Source: a virus
Taxonomy: Duplodnaviria > Caudoviricetes
IMG/VR virus record: IMGVR_UViG_3300021387_000796
Coordinates: 128,001-192,000 of that record
Direction: 5' to 3' (one strand)
Length of the DNA stretch: 64,000 nucleotides
This document shows, in pieces, positions 6,120 through 26,941 of this stretch; positions within the stretch are counted from its first letter, which is position 1; each line of letters opens with the position of its first letter. A program made the translations under genes and the position numbers. Below the pieces are notes generated by a model. The model worked only from the letters and a program-made list of their open reading frames with translations, made no database searches and was not told the DNA's origin.

Positions 6120-6587
6120 TTATCTATATGGTCTTTTTACAATTTCATCTTCATAATCCCATCTAAATTCAAATCTGCAACAATTTTCGCATTTCTCTTT
6201 ATTTACAGATTCATTATTTCTTCGATGAGGATTAAAACAATCATCGGCTTCTTTGCTATAATTCAAACAGTTTACAGTACAAAAATCTTCGCTTTTACAC
6301 TTTTTATATACTGCTTTCTGTTTATCTAATTCTTGTCCTAATGATTGTTCTAATTGACAGATAGAAACTTCTGAACGCAATTCAACTTCTCGTTTTCCGT
6401 TGTAACCACCTTTGAAAAATAATTTTAATAATTTAATTTTTGAAGGTTTTTTATAAACAGGAACCGAGATTGTGAACTTATCTTCTTCTTCCCCACTATA
6501 CATATGACTCAACTCGCTCCAATCGTGTTCCAAATCTTCAATTTTTTGTTCTTGTCTTTCTGCCCAATACTGTTGAGTTTTATTCAT
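6120..6587 (-). CDS. hypothetical protein with Cys-rich C-terminus
   Basis: AAGGAG SD; several Cys pairs. Confidence 0.75.
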   Translation of the reverse strand: MNKTQQYWAERQEQKIEDLEHDWSELSHMYSGEEEDKFTISVPVYKKPSKIKLLKLFFKGGYNGKREVELRSEVSICQLEQSLGQELDKQKAVYKKCKSEDFCTVNCLNYSKEADDCFNPHRRNNESVNKEKCENCCRFEFRWDYEDEIVKRPYR

Positions 6588-6599
6588 TATTTAATCTCC

Positions 6600-6821
6600 T
6601 TAATCTGCAATAAAATATTCCTTATGTTCATGGCATCCGTTTTCATCTTCCCAATGCTTTTCAGTACGATAACAAAGGATTTTATCTTTCAAGCCATGAA
6701 TATAATATTTTTCAATTACTTCATGTTTAGAAGGATATTCAACTGAACATGAAACACCTTCATGACGATAAACATTATTATCAAAATATTCATAATATTT
6801 CTTTGCAGATACCTTTTTCAT
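6600..6821 (-). CDS. hypothetical protein
   Basis: GAGGAG SD before MKKVS, directly after a promoter. Confidence 0.75.
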   Translation of the reverse strand: MKKVSAKKYYEYFDNNVYRHEGVSCSVEYPSKHEVIEKYYIHGLKDKILCYRTEKHWEDENGCHEHKEYFIAD

Positions 6822-6846
6822 AAAGTTATTCTCCTCTATGTTTATA

Positions 6847-6875
6847 AATATATCATAGAAGAGATTGAATGTCAA
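6847..6875 (-). promoter_or_regulatory. sigma70-like early promoter
   Basis: TAATTTTCC-TTGACA-N17-TATATT with TG extension. Confidence 0.75.
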
Positions 6876-9813: not shown

Positions 9814-10449
9814 TTAATCTATTGCTGAAAATAAGCATTCATTAATTGCATTTTTAGCAAAATCAAAACATTTAGATGTTACATCTTTTTTATAAATATT
9901 TGTGTGTGATTTTGGATAACGACCATCTTGTAACAGTATGTTTCTTACATGGTCGTAAAGAACTCCATTATCTTCACAAATTTGATTGAACATTGATGAT
10001 GTATTTACAATCGTTGAAAGCATATAGTTATCAAATAATTTTGCTAAACACGCTTCCATTGGTGATACTACATTATAGACTGTAGTACATTTATCTATTG
10101 ATTTTAAGTAATTGAGCAGTATTGGATTATCGGTTAAAACCCTTATATCAGCACCATCATTCTGCGATTCAGTCACATCAAATTCCAACCAATAATTACA
10201 CTTTGGGTGATTTTTGATGAAATTTGGTGTTATAGTTGAACGAATGGTTATATTATCTGTCCATTTACTCGCTGATTTTATAGCATTATCAGTATCTTTC
10301 ATTTCGGTACAAATTAAAGCAAGGTCTAATTTTTCATTTATGCTCATGTTATATTTTGGGTCTTCCACTAATATTTCAGCAGTACCTTTTTCAAGATATA
10401 ATTTAGTTGCTTTGCCGACCGTACCGAATCCATAAATTCCTATTTTCAA
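9814..10449 (-). CDS. UDP-glucose/GDP-mannose dehydrogenase-like protein lacking the C-terminal domain
   Basis: Rossmann GIYGFGTVG, IRSTITP, AKLFDN, D.R, final KCF; TTG start after GGGAG. Confidence 0.7.
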   Translation of the reverse strand: MKIGIYGFGTVGKATKLYLEKGTAEILVEDPKYNMSINEKLDLALICTEMKDTDNAIKSASKWTDNITIRSTITPNFIKNHPKCNYWLEFDVTESQNDGADIRVLTDNPILLNYLKSIDKCTTVYNVVSPMEACLAKLFDNYMLSTIVNTSSMFNQICEDNGVLYDHVRNILLQDGRYPKSHTNIYKKDVTSKCFDFAKNAINECLFSAID

Positions 10450-10462
10450 TTTTATACTCCCT

Positions 10463-10696
10463 TTATTCATCAAAATCACACAAACTTTCAGAGTAATCAT
10501 CGCCACCATAATAATCAGCACAAACATCTTCCGAATTCAGATATTCGTTCAATTCTTCTTCCGTATTAAAATATCGGTCATTTACACGATACTTTGGTTT
10601 GCTCAAAATTTCTTTTGCTGATTCATTGTTCGGATAATCCTTCAAAACTTCTTCTGCAATCTTGTGTGCAAATCCTTTATCTATTGTTCTTCCCAT
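10463..10696 (-). CDS. hypothetical protein
   Basis: AAGGAG SD. Confidence 0.7.
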   Translation of the reverse strand: MGRTIDKGFAHKIAEEVLKDYPNNESAKEILSKPKYRVNDRYFNTEEELNEYLNSEDVCADYYGGDDYSESLCDFDE

Positions 10697-10699
10697 GAT

Positions 10700-11008
10700 T
10701 TACTCCTTAAAACTTCTTGTTTTAGTTTCTTCATTATAAACATAATCTTTTCCAACAAGGCTTGAAAATATTTCACTTGCTGATTTACCTTCGTTCATCA
10801 TGTATTCGATGATATTCTGATTTTCTTTCTTGCAACGAAGATAACCCTCAATGTACAATATTATACCCAAATCATTCATATCCAAATCAGATTTTGCATT
10901 TGGATGAATCATTTGCATCATAGATTCATCTATTCCGTTTTCACCTAAAGATGTACTCATTGCGTTTTTAGCCAAAGCAATTAATTCAAGTTTATCACTA
11001 TCGGTCAT
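10700..11008 (-). CDS. hypothetical protein
   Basis: GGGAG SD. Confidence 0.75.
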   Translation of the reverse strand: MTDSDKLELIALAKNAMSTSLGENGIDESMMQMIHPNAKSDLDMNDLGIILYIEGYLRCKKENQNIIEYMMNEGKSASEIFSSLVGKDYVYNEETKTRSFKE

Positions 11009-11019
11009 AAATTACTCCC

Positions 11020-11544
11020 TTATTTATTCACCCATTCATTGAACTTGTTTTCAATTGTAGGATATTCAAAATCTTCATCAGCAATGATTTTTTCACATAC
11101 TGATTTTATTGTTTCATTATCATAAACACAAATGTTGTAATTCATTACATAAGATTCGCCACAATAATGGGGTCTTTTCAGATAAAAAGTTTCTTCAACC
11201 AAATTACAATTTTCATCATAGAAGTAAAATCTTCCGCTTTCTTTATCACCAAAAACAGAAGAAAGTTCCTTCTGAATATTCTTCACCATATGGTAAGGGA
11301 TTTTTCCACTAAATCCGCCATTCATAGAGAAAAAGATTGGAGCGTTACTGGCTTTTACAATCAACCACTTGTCAACATTTCCAAGTGGAAGTTCTTTAGC
11401 ATGGTCTACTACCCACTTGAGGGTTTTGTTTGAAGAAATAAGTTCATTTCTTTCTTCGAGTGTATATTTTGCAAGAGGTGGATTAACGCATTCTTCCAAC
11501 AAATCTCTTGCTACATTTACTAGTGTTTCTGAATATTTAGACAT
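11020..11544 (-). CDS. hypothetical protein
   Basis: AAGGAG SD, own promoter. Confidence 0.8.
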   Translation of the reverse strand: MSKYSETLVNVARDLLEECVNPPLAKYTLEERNELISSNKTLKWVVDHAKELPLGNVDKWLIVKASNAPIFFSMNGGFSGKIPYHMVKNIQKELSSVFGDKESGRFYFYDENCNLVEETFYLKRPHYCGESYVMNYNICVYDNETIKSVCEKIIADEDFEYPTIENKFNEWVNK

Positions 11545-11566
11545 AAGATAATCTCCTTATGATTAA

Positions 11567-11595
11567 AGAATATCACAGATGATTTATTTTGTCAA
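11567..11595 (-). promoter_or_regulatory. sigma70-like early promoter
   Basis: TAATTTAC-TTGACA-N17-TATTCT with TG extension. Confidence 0.75.
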
Positions 11596-11644
11596 GTAAA
11601 TTATTAAACTTTATAACTACTCCCAAAGGAGTAGTCTGTTTTAT

Positions 11645-12715
11645 TTATGCACGTTTGCGAACATAAAAACGGAAATGGAAGCACTGCCCATGTTTTACAT
11701 TTACAATAACATTTGTATTGAAACCGCCTGCTCCGCTAGTCCACAATTCACATTCGGCTTTATCACCGACAACATACCCTTCGAGGTCGCCTTTAACCCC
11801 AACTTCGATATGCGACATATCGATAATTTTTCCAACAATGCCTTCAACGTCTTTAATCAGTTGGTCATATTTGCGGTCTTTTTCTTTAGCGATATCTTTA
11901 CGCATATTTTCTTCGAACGCTTCCTTTTTAGGAGACCACTTTGACTTGCCCCACTTTTCAATCTGTCTGATAGAAAAGTGTGATTCGTATTCTTCTCCAA
12001 GTTCATGCAAAGCACTACGAATTGCTTTGCTACATTCATCACGATACTTTGCGTTCTGATAGTATTCTTCGTATGTAGAATAAAACTCAGTATAAGGTGA
12101 ATCTTTCCACATTTCTGTAATCTGTTCTTTGTGTTCCCAAGAATTGCAAGTAATCATGTATTCAATAGAACTTTCAATTACAGATTTGTAATAAGATTCG
12201 TGTTCTTTTTCAAAATATTCAAATCTTTTCATCCAATAATCAGTAACTTCTTTTTCCCAATTGTTCAGAAATTCAACGATTACATTTACATCTTTTCCGT
12301 TCACTGAAACACTATGTAATTCAATACTTGCTTTTCGGTCAGCAACTTTCTTTTCTTCTTCTGCAATAGAGTCACGGTATTTCTGACAACGTTGTTCAAG
12401 TTCCTTAATTCCATCTTGTGTATTTACGATTGGATTGCTAGTCCATTTACTATAATCATAGAAAGTTGAAATATCGAAATATAACTGAGCAACTTCACTT
12501 GAATAATACTTTTCAAGTTTTCCATAGAGTGAAAGTTCATCTGTTTTAGCATCCATAGACTTGATAGAAACTTCATAATCTTCATTAGTGAGTTTCTTCC
12601 ACTGTGCTGAAAGTTTTGCTTTCTTATTTTCATATTTGGCAAGAAGAGCAATCTTCTTTGCAAGTTTTTCTTCGTTCTTTACCAAATTGATTTTCATCTT
12701 TTCTACATCTGCCAT
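11645..12715 (-). CDS. conserved phage coiled-coil protein (GAGG.N..QCFH.R C-terminal motif)
   Basis: 356 aa; own promoter and downstream hairpin 11617-11636. Confidence 0.85.
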   Translation of the reverse strand: MADVEKMKINLVKNEEKLAKKIALLAKYENKKAKLSAQWKKLTNEDYEVSIKSMDAKTDELSLYGKLEKYYSSEVAQLYFDISTFYDYSKWTSNPIVNTQDGIKELEQRCQKYRDSIAEEEKKVADRKASIELHSVSVNGKDVNVIVEFLNNWEKEVTDYWMKRFEYFEKEHESYYKSVIESSIEYMITCNSWEHKEQITEMWKDSPYTEFYSTYEEYYQNAKYRDECSKAIRSALHELGEEYESHFSIRQIEKWGKSKWSPKKEAFEENMRKDIAKEKDRKYDQLIKDVEGIVGKIIDMSHIEVGVKGDLEGYVVGDKAECELWTSGAGGFNTNVIVNVKHGQCFHFRFYVRKRA

Positions 12716-23872: not shown

Positions 23873-24150
23873 AAAAAAAAAATGCCACCACAAAAGGTAG
23901 CACTCGCTCGATACGGTGAAGTCGTTTAAGGACGCTCGATAGCACACATCCGCTCCGATGAGGAATTTCCTACATCTTGGTCTTAGTCGTTAGACTGCCA
24001 AATAATCTTTCTTCATTTGTTCTTATCGCACATATCTCCCTTCACGCTGAAATATGCTTGGTCAAGAAGCACCATGTCGTTTTTCCGAGATACGATAACT
24101 CACAAACTCATTTGGGTTAGGACGGTAGAGTTTGTTATTTCCAACCATCA
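23873..24150 (-). ncRNA. candidate structured ncRNA (~275 nt) with its own late-type promoter and terminator
   Basis: TAACTATTT at 24154-24162; stems ACAAACTC/GAGTTTGT, TTATCG-TATCTC/GAGATA-CGATAA, GATG-AGGAA/TTCCT-CATC; terminator GTGCTACC/GGTGGCAT plus T run. Confidence 0.6.
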
Positions 24151-24161
24151 AATAAATAGTT

Positions 24162-24236
24162 AAAAAAAAAGAAAACCCTCGAAAATTAATGACTTTCGTG
24201 GGAGGTCGAGTGTGTCATTAACATCAAGGGTTTTCT
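24162..24236 (-). terminator. long terminator-like hairpin with CCTCCCA loop
   Basis: AGAAAACCCT/AGGGTTTTCT and TTAATGAC/GTCATTAA stems, T9 tail. Confidence 0.7.
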
Positions 24237-24239
24237 AAG

Positions 24240-24312
24240 ATTCTCGAAAGGCGATTCGAACGTCTACGGAGGGAGTCAAATTCCCTAATGCTACCATTAC
24301 ATCATTCGAGAA
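24240..24312 (-). tRNA. tRNA-Gln(UUG)
   Basis: acceptor TTCTCGA/TCGAGAA, AGGGA-ATTTGAC-TCCCT, TTCGAAT T-loop; no encoded CCA. Confidence 0.85.
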
Positions 24313-24317
24313 TGTAA

Positions 24318-24382
24318 GGAACTCAACATTTGAAATCATCGAGGGTGGGAGGGGAAATCGATAAATTCAAATGTTTCGTTCC
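24318..24382 (-). ncRNA. hairpin with C-rich CCCCTCCCACCC loop
   Basis: AACATTTGAA/TTCAAATGTT and ATCGA/TCGAT stems. Confidence 0.55.
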
Positions 24383-24404
24383 AATAATAGTTCTATATTT
24401 AATA

Positions 24405-24752
24405 CGAATCAGCCACCACGCTTTTTCGCAAAGAACCCAAAAATAATTATAGTGGAAATGCTTTGGTTTTACAATCCTCATAAGGAAACACCAAAGGCTT
24501 ACATTTCACTACTAGAAGGTTTCCATCTTGTTCACCGTAAATATATTTTCGGTAGGATAGATTGGGTTGCCTACAAACTCTAAAAATTCCCACGCAACGT
24601 TCTCGTTTTAGGTGGCTGAACACTTGCGATTTCTTAACGATAACCACCGAGAAAGGTGACGGCATCACAACACTTTACCCCTTTATACGCCACTTATGGA
24701 CTAGCGTTTCCTTTCTCTTAGTCTCTCCCAACGAATTATTATTTCGCTGATA
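24405..24752 (-). ncRNA. candidate large structured ncRNA (~350 nt)
   Basis: nested stems TCAGCCACC/GGTGGCTGA, AACCCAA/TTGGGTT, TAGTGAAATG/CATTTCCACTA, CTTTGGT/ACCAAAG, GAGAAAGG/CCTTTCTC; GC-richer; no credible ORF. Confidence 0.6.
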
Positions 24753-24756
24753 GTAG

Positions 24757-24839
24757 TAGGAGCGAAGGGAGTTGAACCCTTATCCACCAATTACTCGAAT
24801 TATAACGGACGGTTTATAAGACCGCTGAGATACGCTCCT
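24757..24839 (-). tRNA. D-arm-less tRNA-like RNA, anticodon UAU (Ile)
   Basis: AGGAGCG/CGCTCCT acceptor, GCGGT-CTTATAA-ACCGT arm, AAGGG-TTCAACT-CCCTT T arm, only 7 nt where the D arm should be. Confidence 0.7.
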
Positions 24840-24848
24840 ATATAAAAA

Positions 24849-24922
24849 TGATGCTAGGAAGAATCGAACTTCCGACTTTCTGCTTAGAAGGCAGATATTC
24901 TATCCAACTGAATTATAGCACC
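24849..24922 (-). tRNA. tRNA-Arg(UCU)
   Basis: GGTGCTA/TAGCATC, TCTGC-CTTCTAA-GCAGA, GGAAG-TTCGATT-CTTCC. Confidence 0.93.
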
Positions 24923-24929
24923 TAAATAG

Positions 24930-25017
24930 TACCGAAGATGGGATTTGAACCCATACGTCTTTTTTCAAAAACTACGAATTTTAAGTCCGTTGCGTATTCC
25001 GATTTCGCCACTTCGGC
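24930..25017 (-). tRNA. tRNA-Leu(UAA)
   Basis: GCCGAAG/CTTCGGT, ACGGA-CTTAAAA-TTCGT, long variable arm, ATGGG-TTCAAAT-CCCAT. Confidence 0.93.
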
Positions 25018-25039
25018 TTGTTTTTTTTTATCTTGATAA

Positions 25040-25068
25040 ACTATATCATAAAAAATAAAATTTGTCAA
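25040..25068 (-). promoter_or_regulatory. sigma70-like promoter of the tRNA-Leu/Arg/Ile-like/ncRNA/Gln transcript
   Basis: TTGACA-N17-TATAGT with TG extension. Confidence 0.8.
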
Positions 25069-25186
25069 GAAAACTTTCGCTTTTCAATCAAGGAACTTTG
25101 TCTTTAACCCAAACAGACTTGATTTACTCGACTTGCGGATTTGTTTTAATAATGTTCAAACAATACCACCCAAAAACACTCTTGTA

Positions 25187-25257
25187 TGGAGCATAGATTG
25201 ATTGAAAATCTACCTACTGATTAATCGTCAGTTGTTCTACCGTTGAACTAATGCTCC
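25187..25257 (-). tRNA. aberrant tRNA (Asn-like, loop CGAUUAA, anticodon AUU)
   Basis: GGAGCAT/ATGCTCC, GTTC/GAAC D stem, ACTGA/TCAGT, AGATT-TTCAATC-AATCT; G33 and U53-A61 are non-canonical. Confidence 0.7.
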
Positions 25258-25290
25258 AAAAAATTGTGGGTTATACTCATTTTTCACTAC

Positions 25291-25348
25291 AAGGTCTAGT
25301 TCTAATGATAGATTCGGATAAATGCGAAGAAGGTCTAGTTCTAATGAT
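25291..25348. repeat. 19-bp direct repeat, 2 copies, 20-nt spacer
   Basis: AAGGTCTAGTTCTAATGAT at 25291-25309 and 25330-25348. Confidence 0.85.
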
Positions 25349-25460
25349 TGAACTAGAAAAAGGCAAAATTTCTTCGCAAACCAAATCATATCAATCCCAC
25401 TTCCAACCTTTTCTTGATGATTTCCGTGTGGGGAAACCACTCATCAAGCGTGTTTCGTAT

Positions 25461-25541
25461 TCGGCAAAGAGAGACTTGAACTCTCAATCCTTTCGGAACT
25501 AGATTTTGAGTCTAGCGTGTTTGCCATTCCACCATTTGCCG
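25461..25541 (-). tRNA. tRNA-Leu(CAA)
   Basis: CGGCAAA/TTTGCCG, CTAGA-CTCAAAA-TCTAG, variable arm, GAGAG-TTCAAGT-CTCTC. Confidence 0.9.
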
Positions 25542-25611
25542 AAGACTTGTTTTTGTTCAACGAACTCCGCAAGTCAATAATCACATCAATCGAATAACAT
25601 TTAATAATCAA

Positions 25612-25640
25612 ATATTATCATAAAACAAATAAAATGTCAA
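25612..25640 (-). promoter_or_regulatory. sigma70-like promoter at the head of the RNA island
   Basis: TTGACA-N17-TAATAT with TG extension. Confidence 0.7.
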
Positions 25641-26941
25641 TCATTTTCTTCTTTTTCTTCAAATTTTTGACAATAAATTTGTAAACTTAACACATTAATT
25701 GCATCTATAAAAAAACTAGGAACTAATAAAAATATCAATTGTATTATATTAGCACTAATTCCCATTATTGCTCCAATTAAATCACATAATGATTTTGCCC
25801 TATCAGTCTTATTCTCAACTTTTTCTACAGAAACTCCGCTTTCCGCATAGTCCATCAATTTGGAATTAATTTCTTTATTGCGATTATTTAATTCTTCAAT
25901 TCTAATATTATTATCAGAAATTTTCTGTTGAGCAGTTGCAGTGATGCGACCTTCAATAATAACATTTTGTTTTTTCTCATTATCCCAAGCAAGAACATAT
26001 TGTGTCTGTTGAAATTTAATATCTTCATTCAATAATTCAATCTGCTTTTTGTTTTCGTTCAATTCATCTTTAAGCAAATCAAATGAAAGTTTCTTTCCCT
26101 CATTCACATTATAAGTTTTTTCTATAACATAATGACTGTCTTTATATTTTGTATAGTTTACATCGATTGAACTCAACATACTAAATCCAATAGTGCAAAT
26201 TGTTGTAAATCCAAATATAAATGCACTCAACTTGTGATTATTTCTCCACGCCTTGCGAGTCATTTGCGACCCTACTAAACCAAATGTGAGCATAGCGGTA
26301 GAAATAGCATAAGCAACAAATTTAGTCTGTAATCGCTGAAGATAGGTTCCTGTAAAATAAATGGAAAGAATGGAACAAACAATCATCAAAGCAATCATCA
26401 GTTTTGGATATACGAATTCAAACAAATTGAATTCATTCTTTTCTTTTTCAACCTTTGGTTTTTCTTCGACCTTTTTAGTTTCAACCACACTTTCTACTTT
26501 CTTTGGTTCGATGACTGTTTCAATTTTTGGTACAACAGTCTTTTCAACTTCCTTAGATTCTGCAACTTTTTCTACAGTCTTAGGTTTAAGAATTTCTTTG
26601 GTCTTTTCCGCCGACTGAATAGGATTTTTCACACGCTTAATTGGCGTAGGTTTAGAAACGACCGTTGGTTTTGTAGTCTGTGTTGAACTTGATGTGGAGG
26701 TAAATTCCTTCTCTTTCTTTACATTTAATGCTTTCTTCACAAGTCTTTCGCTCTGTTTAGAAAGTGTATAATCATAACCACCATTAGTGTTCTTCTTAGC
26801 ATTGTAAGTTTCAGAAGTCATAGACTTAAACTCATCGTAAGGAATCAATACTCCATCAGAAGTAAGGATTTCACCGTTCTTTGAATTTGGGAGATAGAAA
26901 TAAGTTACTCCTAAATTTTCATTCTTCCACTGTTTAATCAT
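25637..26941 (-). CDS. multi-pass membrane protein with low-complexity linker and coiled coil
   Basis: T/K/E/P-rich linker, three TMs, coiled coil, C-terminal TM; promoter 26963-26991. Confidence 0.8.
   Translation of the reverse strand: MIKQWKNENLGVTYFYLPNSKNGEILTSDGVLIPYDEFKSMTSETYNAKKNTNGGYDYTLSKQSERLVKKALNVKKEKEFTSTSSSTQTTKPTVVSKPTPIKRVKNPIQSAEKTKEILKPKTVEKVAESKEVEKTVVPKIETVIEPKKVESVVETKKVEEKPKVEKEKNEFNLFEFVYPKLMIALMIVCSILSIYFTGTYLQRLQTKFVAYAISTAMLTFGLVGSQMTRKAWRNNHKLSAFIFGFTTICTIGFSMLSSIDVNYTKYKDSHYVIEKTYNVNEGKKLSFDLLKDELNENKKQIELLNEDIKFQQTQYVLAWDNEKKQNVIIEGRITATAQQKISDNNIRIEELNNRNKEINSKLMDYAESGVSVEKVENKTDRAKSLCDLIGAIMGISANIIQLIFLLVPSFFIDAINVLSLQIYCQKFEEKEEND

Follow-up and report, generated by a model that had tools for sequence, protein, structure and literature searches.

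A conserved non-coding RNA between two tRNA genes of a phage, with an apparently modular architecture

The tRNA cluster of phage T4 contains small, stable, non-tRNA RNAs, known as species 1 and 2 (rnaC and rnaD), which are released when tRNA-processing enzymes cut the common precursor and whose function is still unknown, and HDV-like 'theta' ribozymes sit directly 3' of phage tRNAs. Two larger RNAs share this setting. ROOL occurs in rumen metagenomes and phages beside tRNA genes, with which it is probably co-transcribed (PMC5737381), and folds into a multi-helix structure with pseudoknots (Rfam RF03087; Weinberg et al. 2017, PMC5737381). GOLLD is a large RNA of phages and prophages that often adjoins tRNAs (PMC5737381).

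This study analyzed a 64,000-nucleotide stretch of phage DNA (hereafter the window) that lies in a 218-kb IMG/VR virus record with a completeness of 92% (CheckV) and an AT-rich composition (GC approximately 30%). The record carries genes for a T4-type baseplate wedge protein, GroEL, a DnaB-type helicase, and an ATP-dependent DNA ligase, and an RNA ligase gene is located 3 kb away from the structured RNA region. By using Rfam and ARAGORN, we identified tRNA-Leu(CAA) (25460-25542), an odd tRNA-Asn(AUU) (25186-25258), tRNA-Leu(UAA) (24929-25017), tRNA-Arg(UCU) (24849-24922), an atypical tRNA with the anticodon UAU (24757-24839; Rfam tRNA, 36.3 bits), and tRNA-Gln(UUG) (24239-24312), all six on the minus strand. 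A sigma-70-like minus-strand promoter (TTGACA, 17 nt, and TATAGT, with TG; consensus matches 11/12) was found at 25068-25040, and its position suggests that it heads the transcription unit from tRNA-Leu(UAA) to tRNA-Gln. The operon is closed 3' of tRNA-Gln by a long terminator-like hairpin with the loop CCUCCCAC and a subsequent U run (24162-24235, minus strand), which was read directly from the sequence; a consensus terminator scan overlooked this hairpin because its stem is too long. Because the promoter and the terminator-like hairpin bracket the unit, the 444-nt gap between tRNA genes at 24313-24756 is internal to the minus-strand tRNA operon. Together with strong SD sites and the GC content of 30%, promoters of the sigma-70 type suggest a host among the rumen Firmicutes.

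The transcribed strand of the gap is the minus strand, because the flanking tRNA genes lie on it and the conserved helices hold G-U pairs, whose plus-strand counterparts would be A-C. Folding of the minus strand gave a minimum free energy of -121.4 kcal/mol (z = -3.0), compared with z = -1.7 for the plus strand. A comparison of the longest stop-free stretches among relatives revealed no open reading frame common to the lineages in strand and frame; the longest such stretch in the relative L051 was 25 aa, and the indels in alignments A3 and A4 were not in multiples of three. The region is thus non-coding, and the gap contains a real, conserved RNA between two tRNA genes.

We compared this RNA with the 4227 covariance models of Rfam 15 by using the gathering score on the window, E<=10 on positions 24000-25700, and E<=1 on five relatives. 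Only tRNAs reached the gathering score in the window, and the matches in the gap at E<=10 on 24000-25700 were at chance level, the best being MIR1886 (19 bits) and permuted tmRNA (12.4 bits; E=8.3). The ROOL model (RF03087) matched neither at the gathering score nor at E<=10, and not at E<=1 in the five relatives; GOLLD (RF01998) had no match in the window at E<=10 or in the relatives tested, and self-cleaving ribozymes, RNase P, group I/II introns, and riboswitches had no Rfam 15 match in the window or relatives. Neither ARAGORN nor Rfam called a tRNA or tmRNA inside 24313-24756, and a sensitive BLAST search against 50,697 phage records matched the tRNAs alone. The region resembles ROOL in its rumen habitat, phage origin, tRNA linkage, and multi-helix structure with a pseudoknot, but its conserved unit is 140 nt (module B) or 244 nt (modules A and B) and contains one three-way junction and a single pseudoknot. 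It resembles GOLLD as a phage RNA adjoining tRNAs, but no common motifs were seen, and GOLLD, at about 800 nt, is far longer. Location near tRNAs in a phage is the property that all three share and is not sufficient alone for membership. Because the model matches, size, and architecture all differed, we placed the region outside ROOL and GOLLD; an earlier sequence-only reading of positions 24405-24752 had likewise been unable to assign it to either, and the covariance-model check bears this out. The region most likely represents a new structured non-coding RNA family within the tRNA-linked phage RNAs, the general kind of which is already known.

A search with the DNA ligase yielded 10 loci, and the RNA was present only in G001, a 160-kb IMG/VR contig that aligns with the minus-strand gap over positions 10-191 of the latter (73% identity). 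The site is syntenic, with homologs of the 434-aa and the 364/292-aa neighbours on its two sides. The 364-aa neighbour had 45 homologs in a large protein collection, and their contigs, together with one metagenome pattern scan, provided 11 further loci (given here with L numbers). Searching IMG/VR with the 434-aa and 292-aa neighbour proteins yielded no related loci. Two IMG/VR pattern scans recovered G001 only, plus two chance matches in coding DNA; an IMG/VR pattern scan for a divergent B type recovered nothing; and a GTDB scan with one genome per species revealed no member and three chance matches. The loci P0022, P0030, P0032, and P0039 had no tRNA island beside the gene. The family is therefore represented by about 12 related loci from ruminant and human gut metagenomes (sheep gut, bovine gut, and human gut, including a Hadza sample) and is small, with about 7 lineages, all of one phage group. 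Between the window and G001, modules A and B were 73% identical over 187 nt and the most conserved segments of the flanking genes 65-77%, their proteins being only 51-54% identical; the rest of the tRNA island was unalignable.

The comparison of these loci shows that the region is a mosaic of independently occurring modules rather than one 350-nt RNA. Module B was present in all 13 loci (11 distinct sequences). Module A was found, always 5' of B, in the window, L046, L042, L031, L038, L026, and G001 and was missing from L029, L040, L037, and L051; in the window, L026, L031, and L038, its start follows the discriminator base of the tRNA ahead of it at a spacing of 0-1 nt. Module C (24386-24514) was limited to the window, L046, L031, and L040. 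In L038, module B ran directly into tRNA-Gln with no C, and L042, otherwise near-identical to the window, carried an intact tRNA-Asn(GUU) in the slot of the second half of C. In L031 and L038, A and B were separated by a short insert (core GAGGAAGUUCCUC), which in L040 lay 5' of B, and a different hairpin of about 40 nt occupied the A-B junction of L026 and stood ahead of B in L029 and L051.

Module B, the core of approximately 140 nt (24515-24653, minus strand), was matched by covariance model R2 at 80-151 bits in all 13 loci. In the predicted structure, the helix B0 (24649-24653 with 24600-24604) lies directly outside B1 (GGUGGUU/AGCCACC; 24642-24648 with 24611-24617), which was kept in all 11 distinct sequences and encloses a large, conserved loop of 24-30 nt bearing UAAGAAAUC. 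B2 (GGGA/UCCU in the window; 24588-24591 with 24554-24557) and B3 (GUAGG/CCUUC in the window; 24570-24574 with 24515-24519) cross to form an H-type pseudoknot, with a variable hairpin or insertion between B2b and B3b and with the 3' strand of B3 placed after a conserved GGAAA. The conserved single-stranded motifs were UAAGAAAUC, UUUAGAGUU, and GGAAA.

Model R2 was built from 11 sequences, and its 13 matches were realigned into alignment A4. In A4, which the covariance model had fitted to B0, B1, and B3 and in which kinship among the sequences inflates the shuffle statistics, 82% of the cells were paired (70% in shuffled alignments), 14/22 pairs were changed on both sides (reached by 0/500 shuffles), and the covariation score was 0.41, compared with 0.19 for shuffled alignments (0/500) and <=0.14 when partners were slid by 1-3 columns. 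Only 65% of the B0 cells paired, as B0 was misregistered in four rows. B3 appeared as GUCAGU/ACUGUC in L029, GUCUGU/ACAGUC in L037, GCGAG/CUCGC in G001, GCAAG/CUUGC in L043, and GACGGU/ACCGUC in L051, with a recurrent U-U mismatch at its second position; B2 appeared as UGGAU/AUCCA in L026, UACAU/AUGUA in L029, and CGGU/ACCG in G001. In the window group, B3 has the U-U mismatch and is rivalled by a perfect local hairpin, GUAGG/CCUAC, and a local alternative helix, GUUGC/GCAAC, had some comparative support, weaker than that of the modelled helices. These comparative data point to module B as the conserved functional unit of the region. We also considered 16S rRNA mimicry by AGAGUUUG of module B, which we take to resemble the 5' end of 16S rRNA, and rejected it; the match spans only 8 nt, and L026 and L051 lack it.

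The crossing of B2 and B3 is reminiscent of theta ribozymes: the order is P1a-P2a-P1b-P2b, a variable hairpin occupies the P4 position, the first B2 pair is G-U in 6/11 sequences, and module A begins 0-1 nt past a tRNA 3' end. An HDV-like fold calls for a nested double pseudoknot with a P3/L3 hairpin and P1.1, and for cleavage at the 5' end of P1. In contrast to these ribozymes, no P3/L3 hairpin was seen between B3a and B2b on inspection by eye, B does not adjoin the tRNA 3' end, and the HDV families of Rfam had no match. On this comparison, module B would not be filed as an HDV-like ribozyme.

Module A (24649-24756, minus strand; 108 nt) was present in 5 lineages, and covariance model R1 matched it at 103-240 bits. 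RNAalifold, applied to six sequences, predicted a hairpin P1 (24728-24750) and a three-way junction closed by the helix GAGAAAGG (24710-24717)/CCUUUCUC (24649-24656), with compensatory changes in 10/28 predicted pairs. One inner hairpin has the invariant loop GUCCAUAAG; the second, GUGA/UCAC, exhibited one compensatory and two one-sided changes (by eye, alignment A5). The single-stranded stretches AGACU, AUAAAG, GGGUNAANUGUUG, and GCCGUC were near-invariant. These features suggest that module A is an accessory 5' domain of the family.

The first part of module C, a long imperfect hairpin (24447-24514, minus strand) found only in the window, L046, L031, and L040, exhibited only one-sided changes, was missing in L038, and was replaced in L042. 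The second part is a 51-nt segment (24389-24439, minus strand) that bears GGUGGCUGA (24409-24417), the 3' strand of the long-range helix discussed below. The tRNA-Asn(GUU) of L042 and this segment have the first 9 nt and the last 5 nt in common, and the alignment score of the segment to the tRNA, 25, was not significant (22.8 +/- 3.4 when shuffled). The position and shared ends offer a lead that the segment is possibly a decayed tRNA-Asn. Module C thus appears to be lineage-specific filler consisting of the long hairpin and this possible relic.

Hairpin D (24318-24382, minus strand; loop CCCCUCCCACCC) lies just beyond positions 24405-24752. Its loop was identical and its stems different in G001, L043, L029, L031, L040, L042, and L046, and it stood before or after tRNA-Gln, varying by phage. 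Near-identical, anti-Shine-Dalgarno-like C-rich loops CCCCUCCCACCC occurred at 24318-24382 and 24171-24235 of the window, at L029:5870-5925, and at L012:1810-1885 (G001), with stems wholly different among the phages; the second copy in the window, 24171-24235, also serves as the operon terminator. Two further pairings were rejected: that of the D loop (UCCCAC) with B2a (GUGGGA), possible in the window and not in G001, and a terminal helix CUACUA/UAGUAG around A and B, possible in the window and absent in L038 and L042.

The tRNA islands of these phages exhibited several further features. The UAU-anticodon tRNA was kept in L026, L029, L042, L046, and L051, and ARAGORN called its L038 homolog tRNA-Ile(tat); module A lay directly 3' of this tRNA in four lineages. 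A tRNA-like gene was found directly 3' of module B at L012:1725-1808 (G001) and L037:15044-15126, with normal acceptor and T arms and an anticodon stem that encloses an 18-20-nt loop with the common motifs UAAAGCC and GGAAAG; ARAGORN missed both copies, and the L037 copy has an Rfam score of 36 bits. Another non-coding unit, module X, bears the motif GAAUAAGUCAAGUU and is placed upstream of A in G001 (L012:1403-1490) and of B in L040 (5686-5790); it resembles a degenerate tRNA with the acceptor-like stem GAGAAC/GUUCUC. TnpB (IS605 OrfB/Cas12f-like) genes were inserted beside or near the islands at L029:6392-7729, L040:1090-2424 and 10421-11749, and L051:1273-2595, with none at the tRNA/RNA island of the window, and genes for an HNH endonuclease (L038:6714-7136) and a GIY-YIG endonuclease (L040:6307-6849) lay in or beside the island. 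The endonuclease gene insertions fit an island that is a hot spot for mobile elements and rearrangement. Past the operon terminator, a separate non-coding stretch of approximately 275 nt was strongly conserved in L026 (about 6570-6860), L029, and L031, and a 241-nt sheep-gut metatranscriptome contig matched positions 23903-24143 of the window, within this stretch, at 100% identity.

We compared contigs of four RNA runs with the window; such contigs show ends, strand, and level unreliably and may include DNA carry-over. In the bovine rumen metatranscriptome X16, a 309-nt contig of depth 91 covered 24523-24739, that is, A and B of a close relative, and contained a 35-nt insert typical of L038 at 24649/24650; a contig from the spacer (25010-25394) had a depth of 5. 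The 309-nt contig ran into the Illumina read-1 adapter on its high-coordinate side, the 5' end of a minus-strand RNA, as a short minus-strand RNA fragment would give if the library was stranded. A second run of the same sample provided a contig of depth 12 (24649-24818) bridging the atypical tRNA into module A, and a third study, X20, provided a contig over B and part of C. Stretches that no contig covered are uninformative, and the 17-30% of the sequence words of A and B that occur in RNA runs of four further bovine studies are not counted as evidence. Modules A and B are thus present in RNA libraries, which is not proof of a stable RNA.

We consider it fairly probable that the region consists of three adjacent modules with B as the core, of which A-B would be freed by tRNA punctuation and may act in trans. 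The operon would be transcribed from the promoter at 25068-25040; in line with tRNA maturation in general, an RNase Z-type cut after the upstream CCA-less tRNA and an RNase P cut before the next tRNA would free A-B (A-B-C-D in the window) as a discrete, stable RNA. A-B might then act during infection as a protein-binding or regulatory RNA, probably with a link to tRNA or translation, a role in which we place low confidence. T4 rnaC and rnaD are the closest analogue for the making of such an RNA, as an analogy only; they are not known to have the pseudoknot architecture of module B, and the region has no sequence similarity to cultured phages outside the tRNAs.

The sequence-only reading had instead described one RNA of approximately 350 nt, enclosed by a 9-bp long-range helix, in which AGCCACC toggles between an upstream GGUGGUU and a downstream GGUGGCU as a conformational switch. 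All the pairings that it named do exist on the minus strand: TCAGCCACC (24409-24417) and GGTGGCTGA (24611-24619) are perfect reverse complements of each other; AGCCACC (24611-24617) can pair with GGUGGUU, the minus strand of AACCACC (24642-24648); and the closing pair of its second domain, GAGAAAGG (24649-24656) with CCTTTCTC (24710-24717), belongs to a conserved unit with compensatory changes. The long helix is part of the minus-strand minimum-free-energy fold, and forcing the local helix gave -119.2 kcal/mol, a difference of 2.2 kcal/mol, so the two folds are near iso-energetic in the window. When the downstream 200 nt were shuffled 200 times, the perfect 9 bp of the window and L031 were reached by 0/200 shuffles, and in L042 the change of AGCCACC to AUCCACC is mirrored by GGUGGA in the downstream element. 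However, the helix shrank to 7 bp in L046 after an uncompensated G>A (11/200 shuffles) and to 6 bp in L040 after two uncompensated changes (58/200), neither significant against the shuffles. The 6-bp partner in L042 (25/200) is the anticodon stem of a real, intact tRNA-Asn, bound to pair within the tRNA, and the 8 bp in G001 (1/200) involve the ribosome-binding region of the next gene and were not kept in L043. No helix above chance was present in L038, L026, L029, L037, L051, and L043, and the partner strand was absent in seven of the 12 loci (L038, G001, L043, L026, L029, L037, and L051), with L038 passing from B straight to tRNA-Gln. B1, which had been regarded as an alternative, was kept with compensatory changes in 11/11 distinct sequences and covaried in all lineages. 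Because the long helix is lineage-specific and B1 is kept throughout, any such switch would be confined to a few closely related phages rather than extend to the family. The 9-bp helix thus appears to join the 3' strand of B1 to lineage-specific filler and not to be a family feature, and a single switching RNA is, in our assessment, very unlikely.

Two other explanations were weighed. The gap might have no RNA function and consist of tRNA-operon spacer and decayed tRNA genes, the stems being relics or chance. Degenerate pieces resembling tRNAs abound in the islands (module X of G001 and L040, and sequences after B in G001 and L037), the slot of module C holds a tRNA-Asn in L042, and modules were gained and lost among the phages. 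This explanation conflicts with the invariant single-stranded motifs and many compensatory pairs of A and B, their conservation, which equals that of neighbouring coding DNA, and the retention of B in every lineage amid heavy rearrangement; the depth of A and B also exceeds that of the adjacent spacer in the metatranscriptome. We regard it as distinctly unlikely for the gap as a whole, and it stays likely for module C only. Alternatively, B might be a cis-acting precursor element that serves as a guide or timer for the maturation or stability of tRNA-Gln or the entire polycistron. Module B lies upstream of tRNA-Gln(UUG) in 11/13 loci (9/11 distinct sequences), at a distance of 6-20 nt in L038, L026, and L029, and four lineages have the start of A at the 3' end of the tRNA before it. 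However, B and tRNA-Gln stand about 200 nt apart, with C and D between them, in the window, L031, L040, and L046, a tRNA-Asn intervenes in L042, G001 and L043 are without tRNA-Gln after B, and a pseudoknot with invariant loops exceeds the usual need of a processing spacer. A cis-acting role therefore seems unlikely, and because B is kept 200 nt or a tRNA away from tRNA-Gln, or without it, we favoured a trans-acting RNA over cis-processing.

Within the reading of A-B as a freed, possibly trans-acting RNA, a different pair of competing helices deserves attention. Module A directly abuts B in the window, L046, L042, G001, and L043, and where it does so, its closing helix ends in five bases, UUCUC, that double as the 5' strand of B0 (UUCUC/GAGAA). 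The insert of L031 and L038 provides a separate strand, GUUCCUC, able to pair with GAGAAC, which would allow both helices in these two phages, and B0 is clear in two phages with B only (7 bp in L029 and 6 bp in L037). We infer that the A closing helix and B0 are a better candidate for mutually exclusive pairing than the AGCCACC switch, and their competition is plausible in the window; the rivalry over five nucleotides could couple the folding of A and B. More tentatively, and with some doubt on our part, B with or without A might be a new class of functional phage RNA, a small ribozyme or an RNP scaffold, that is released by tRNA punctuation, manipulates host tRNA or translation, and uses the A/B0 rivalry as a folding switch.

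These findings carry a general lesson, namely that a thermodynamically convincing long-range helix can link a conserved module to lineage-specific filler. The non-tRNA content of the tRNA arrays of large phages has mostly been ignored. Module B, at 140 nt, is compact enough to be studied directly by structural and biochemical methods, and if the RNA is stable and functional, it would be a third example of a tRNA-linked phage RNA beside ROOL and GOLLD.
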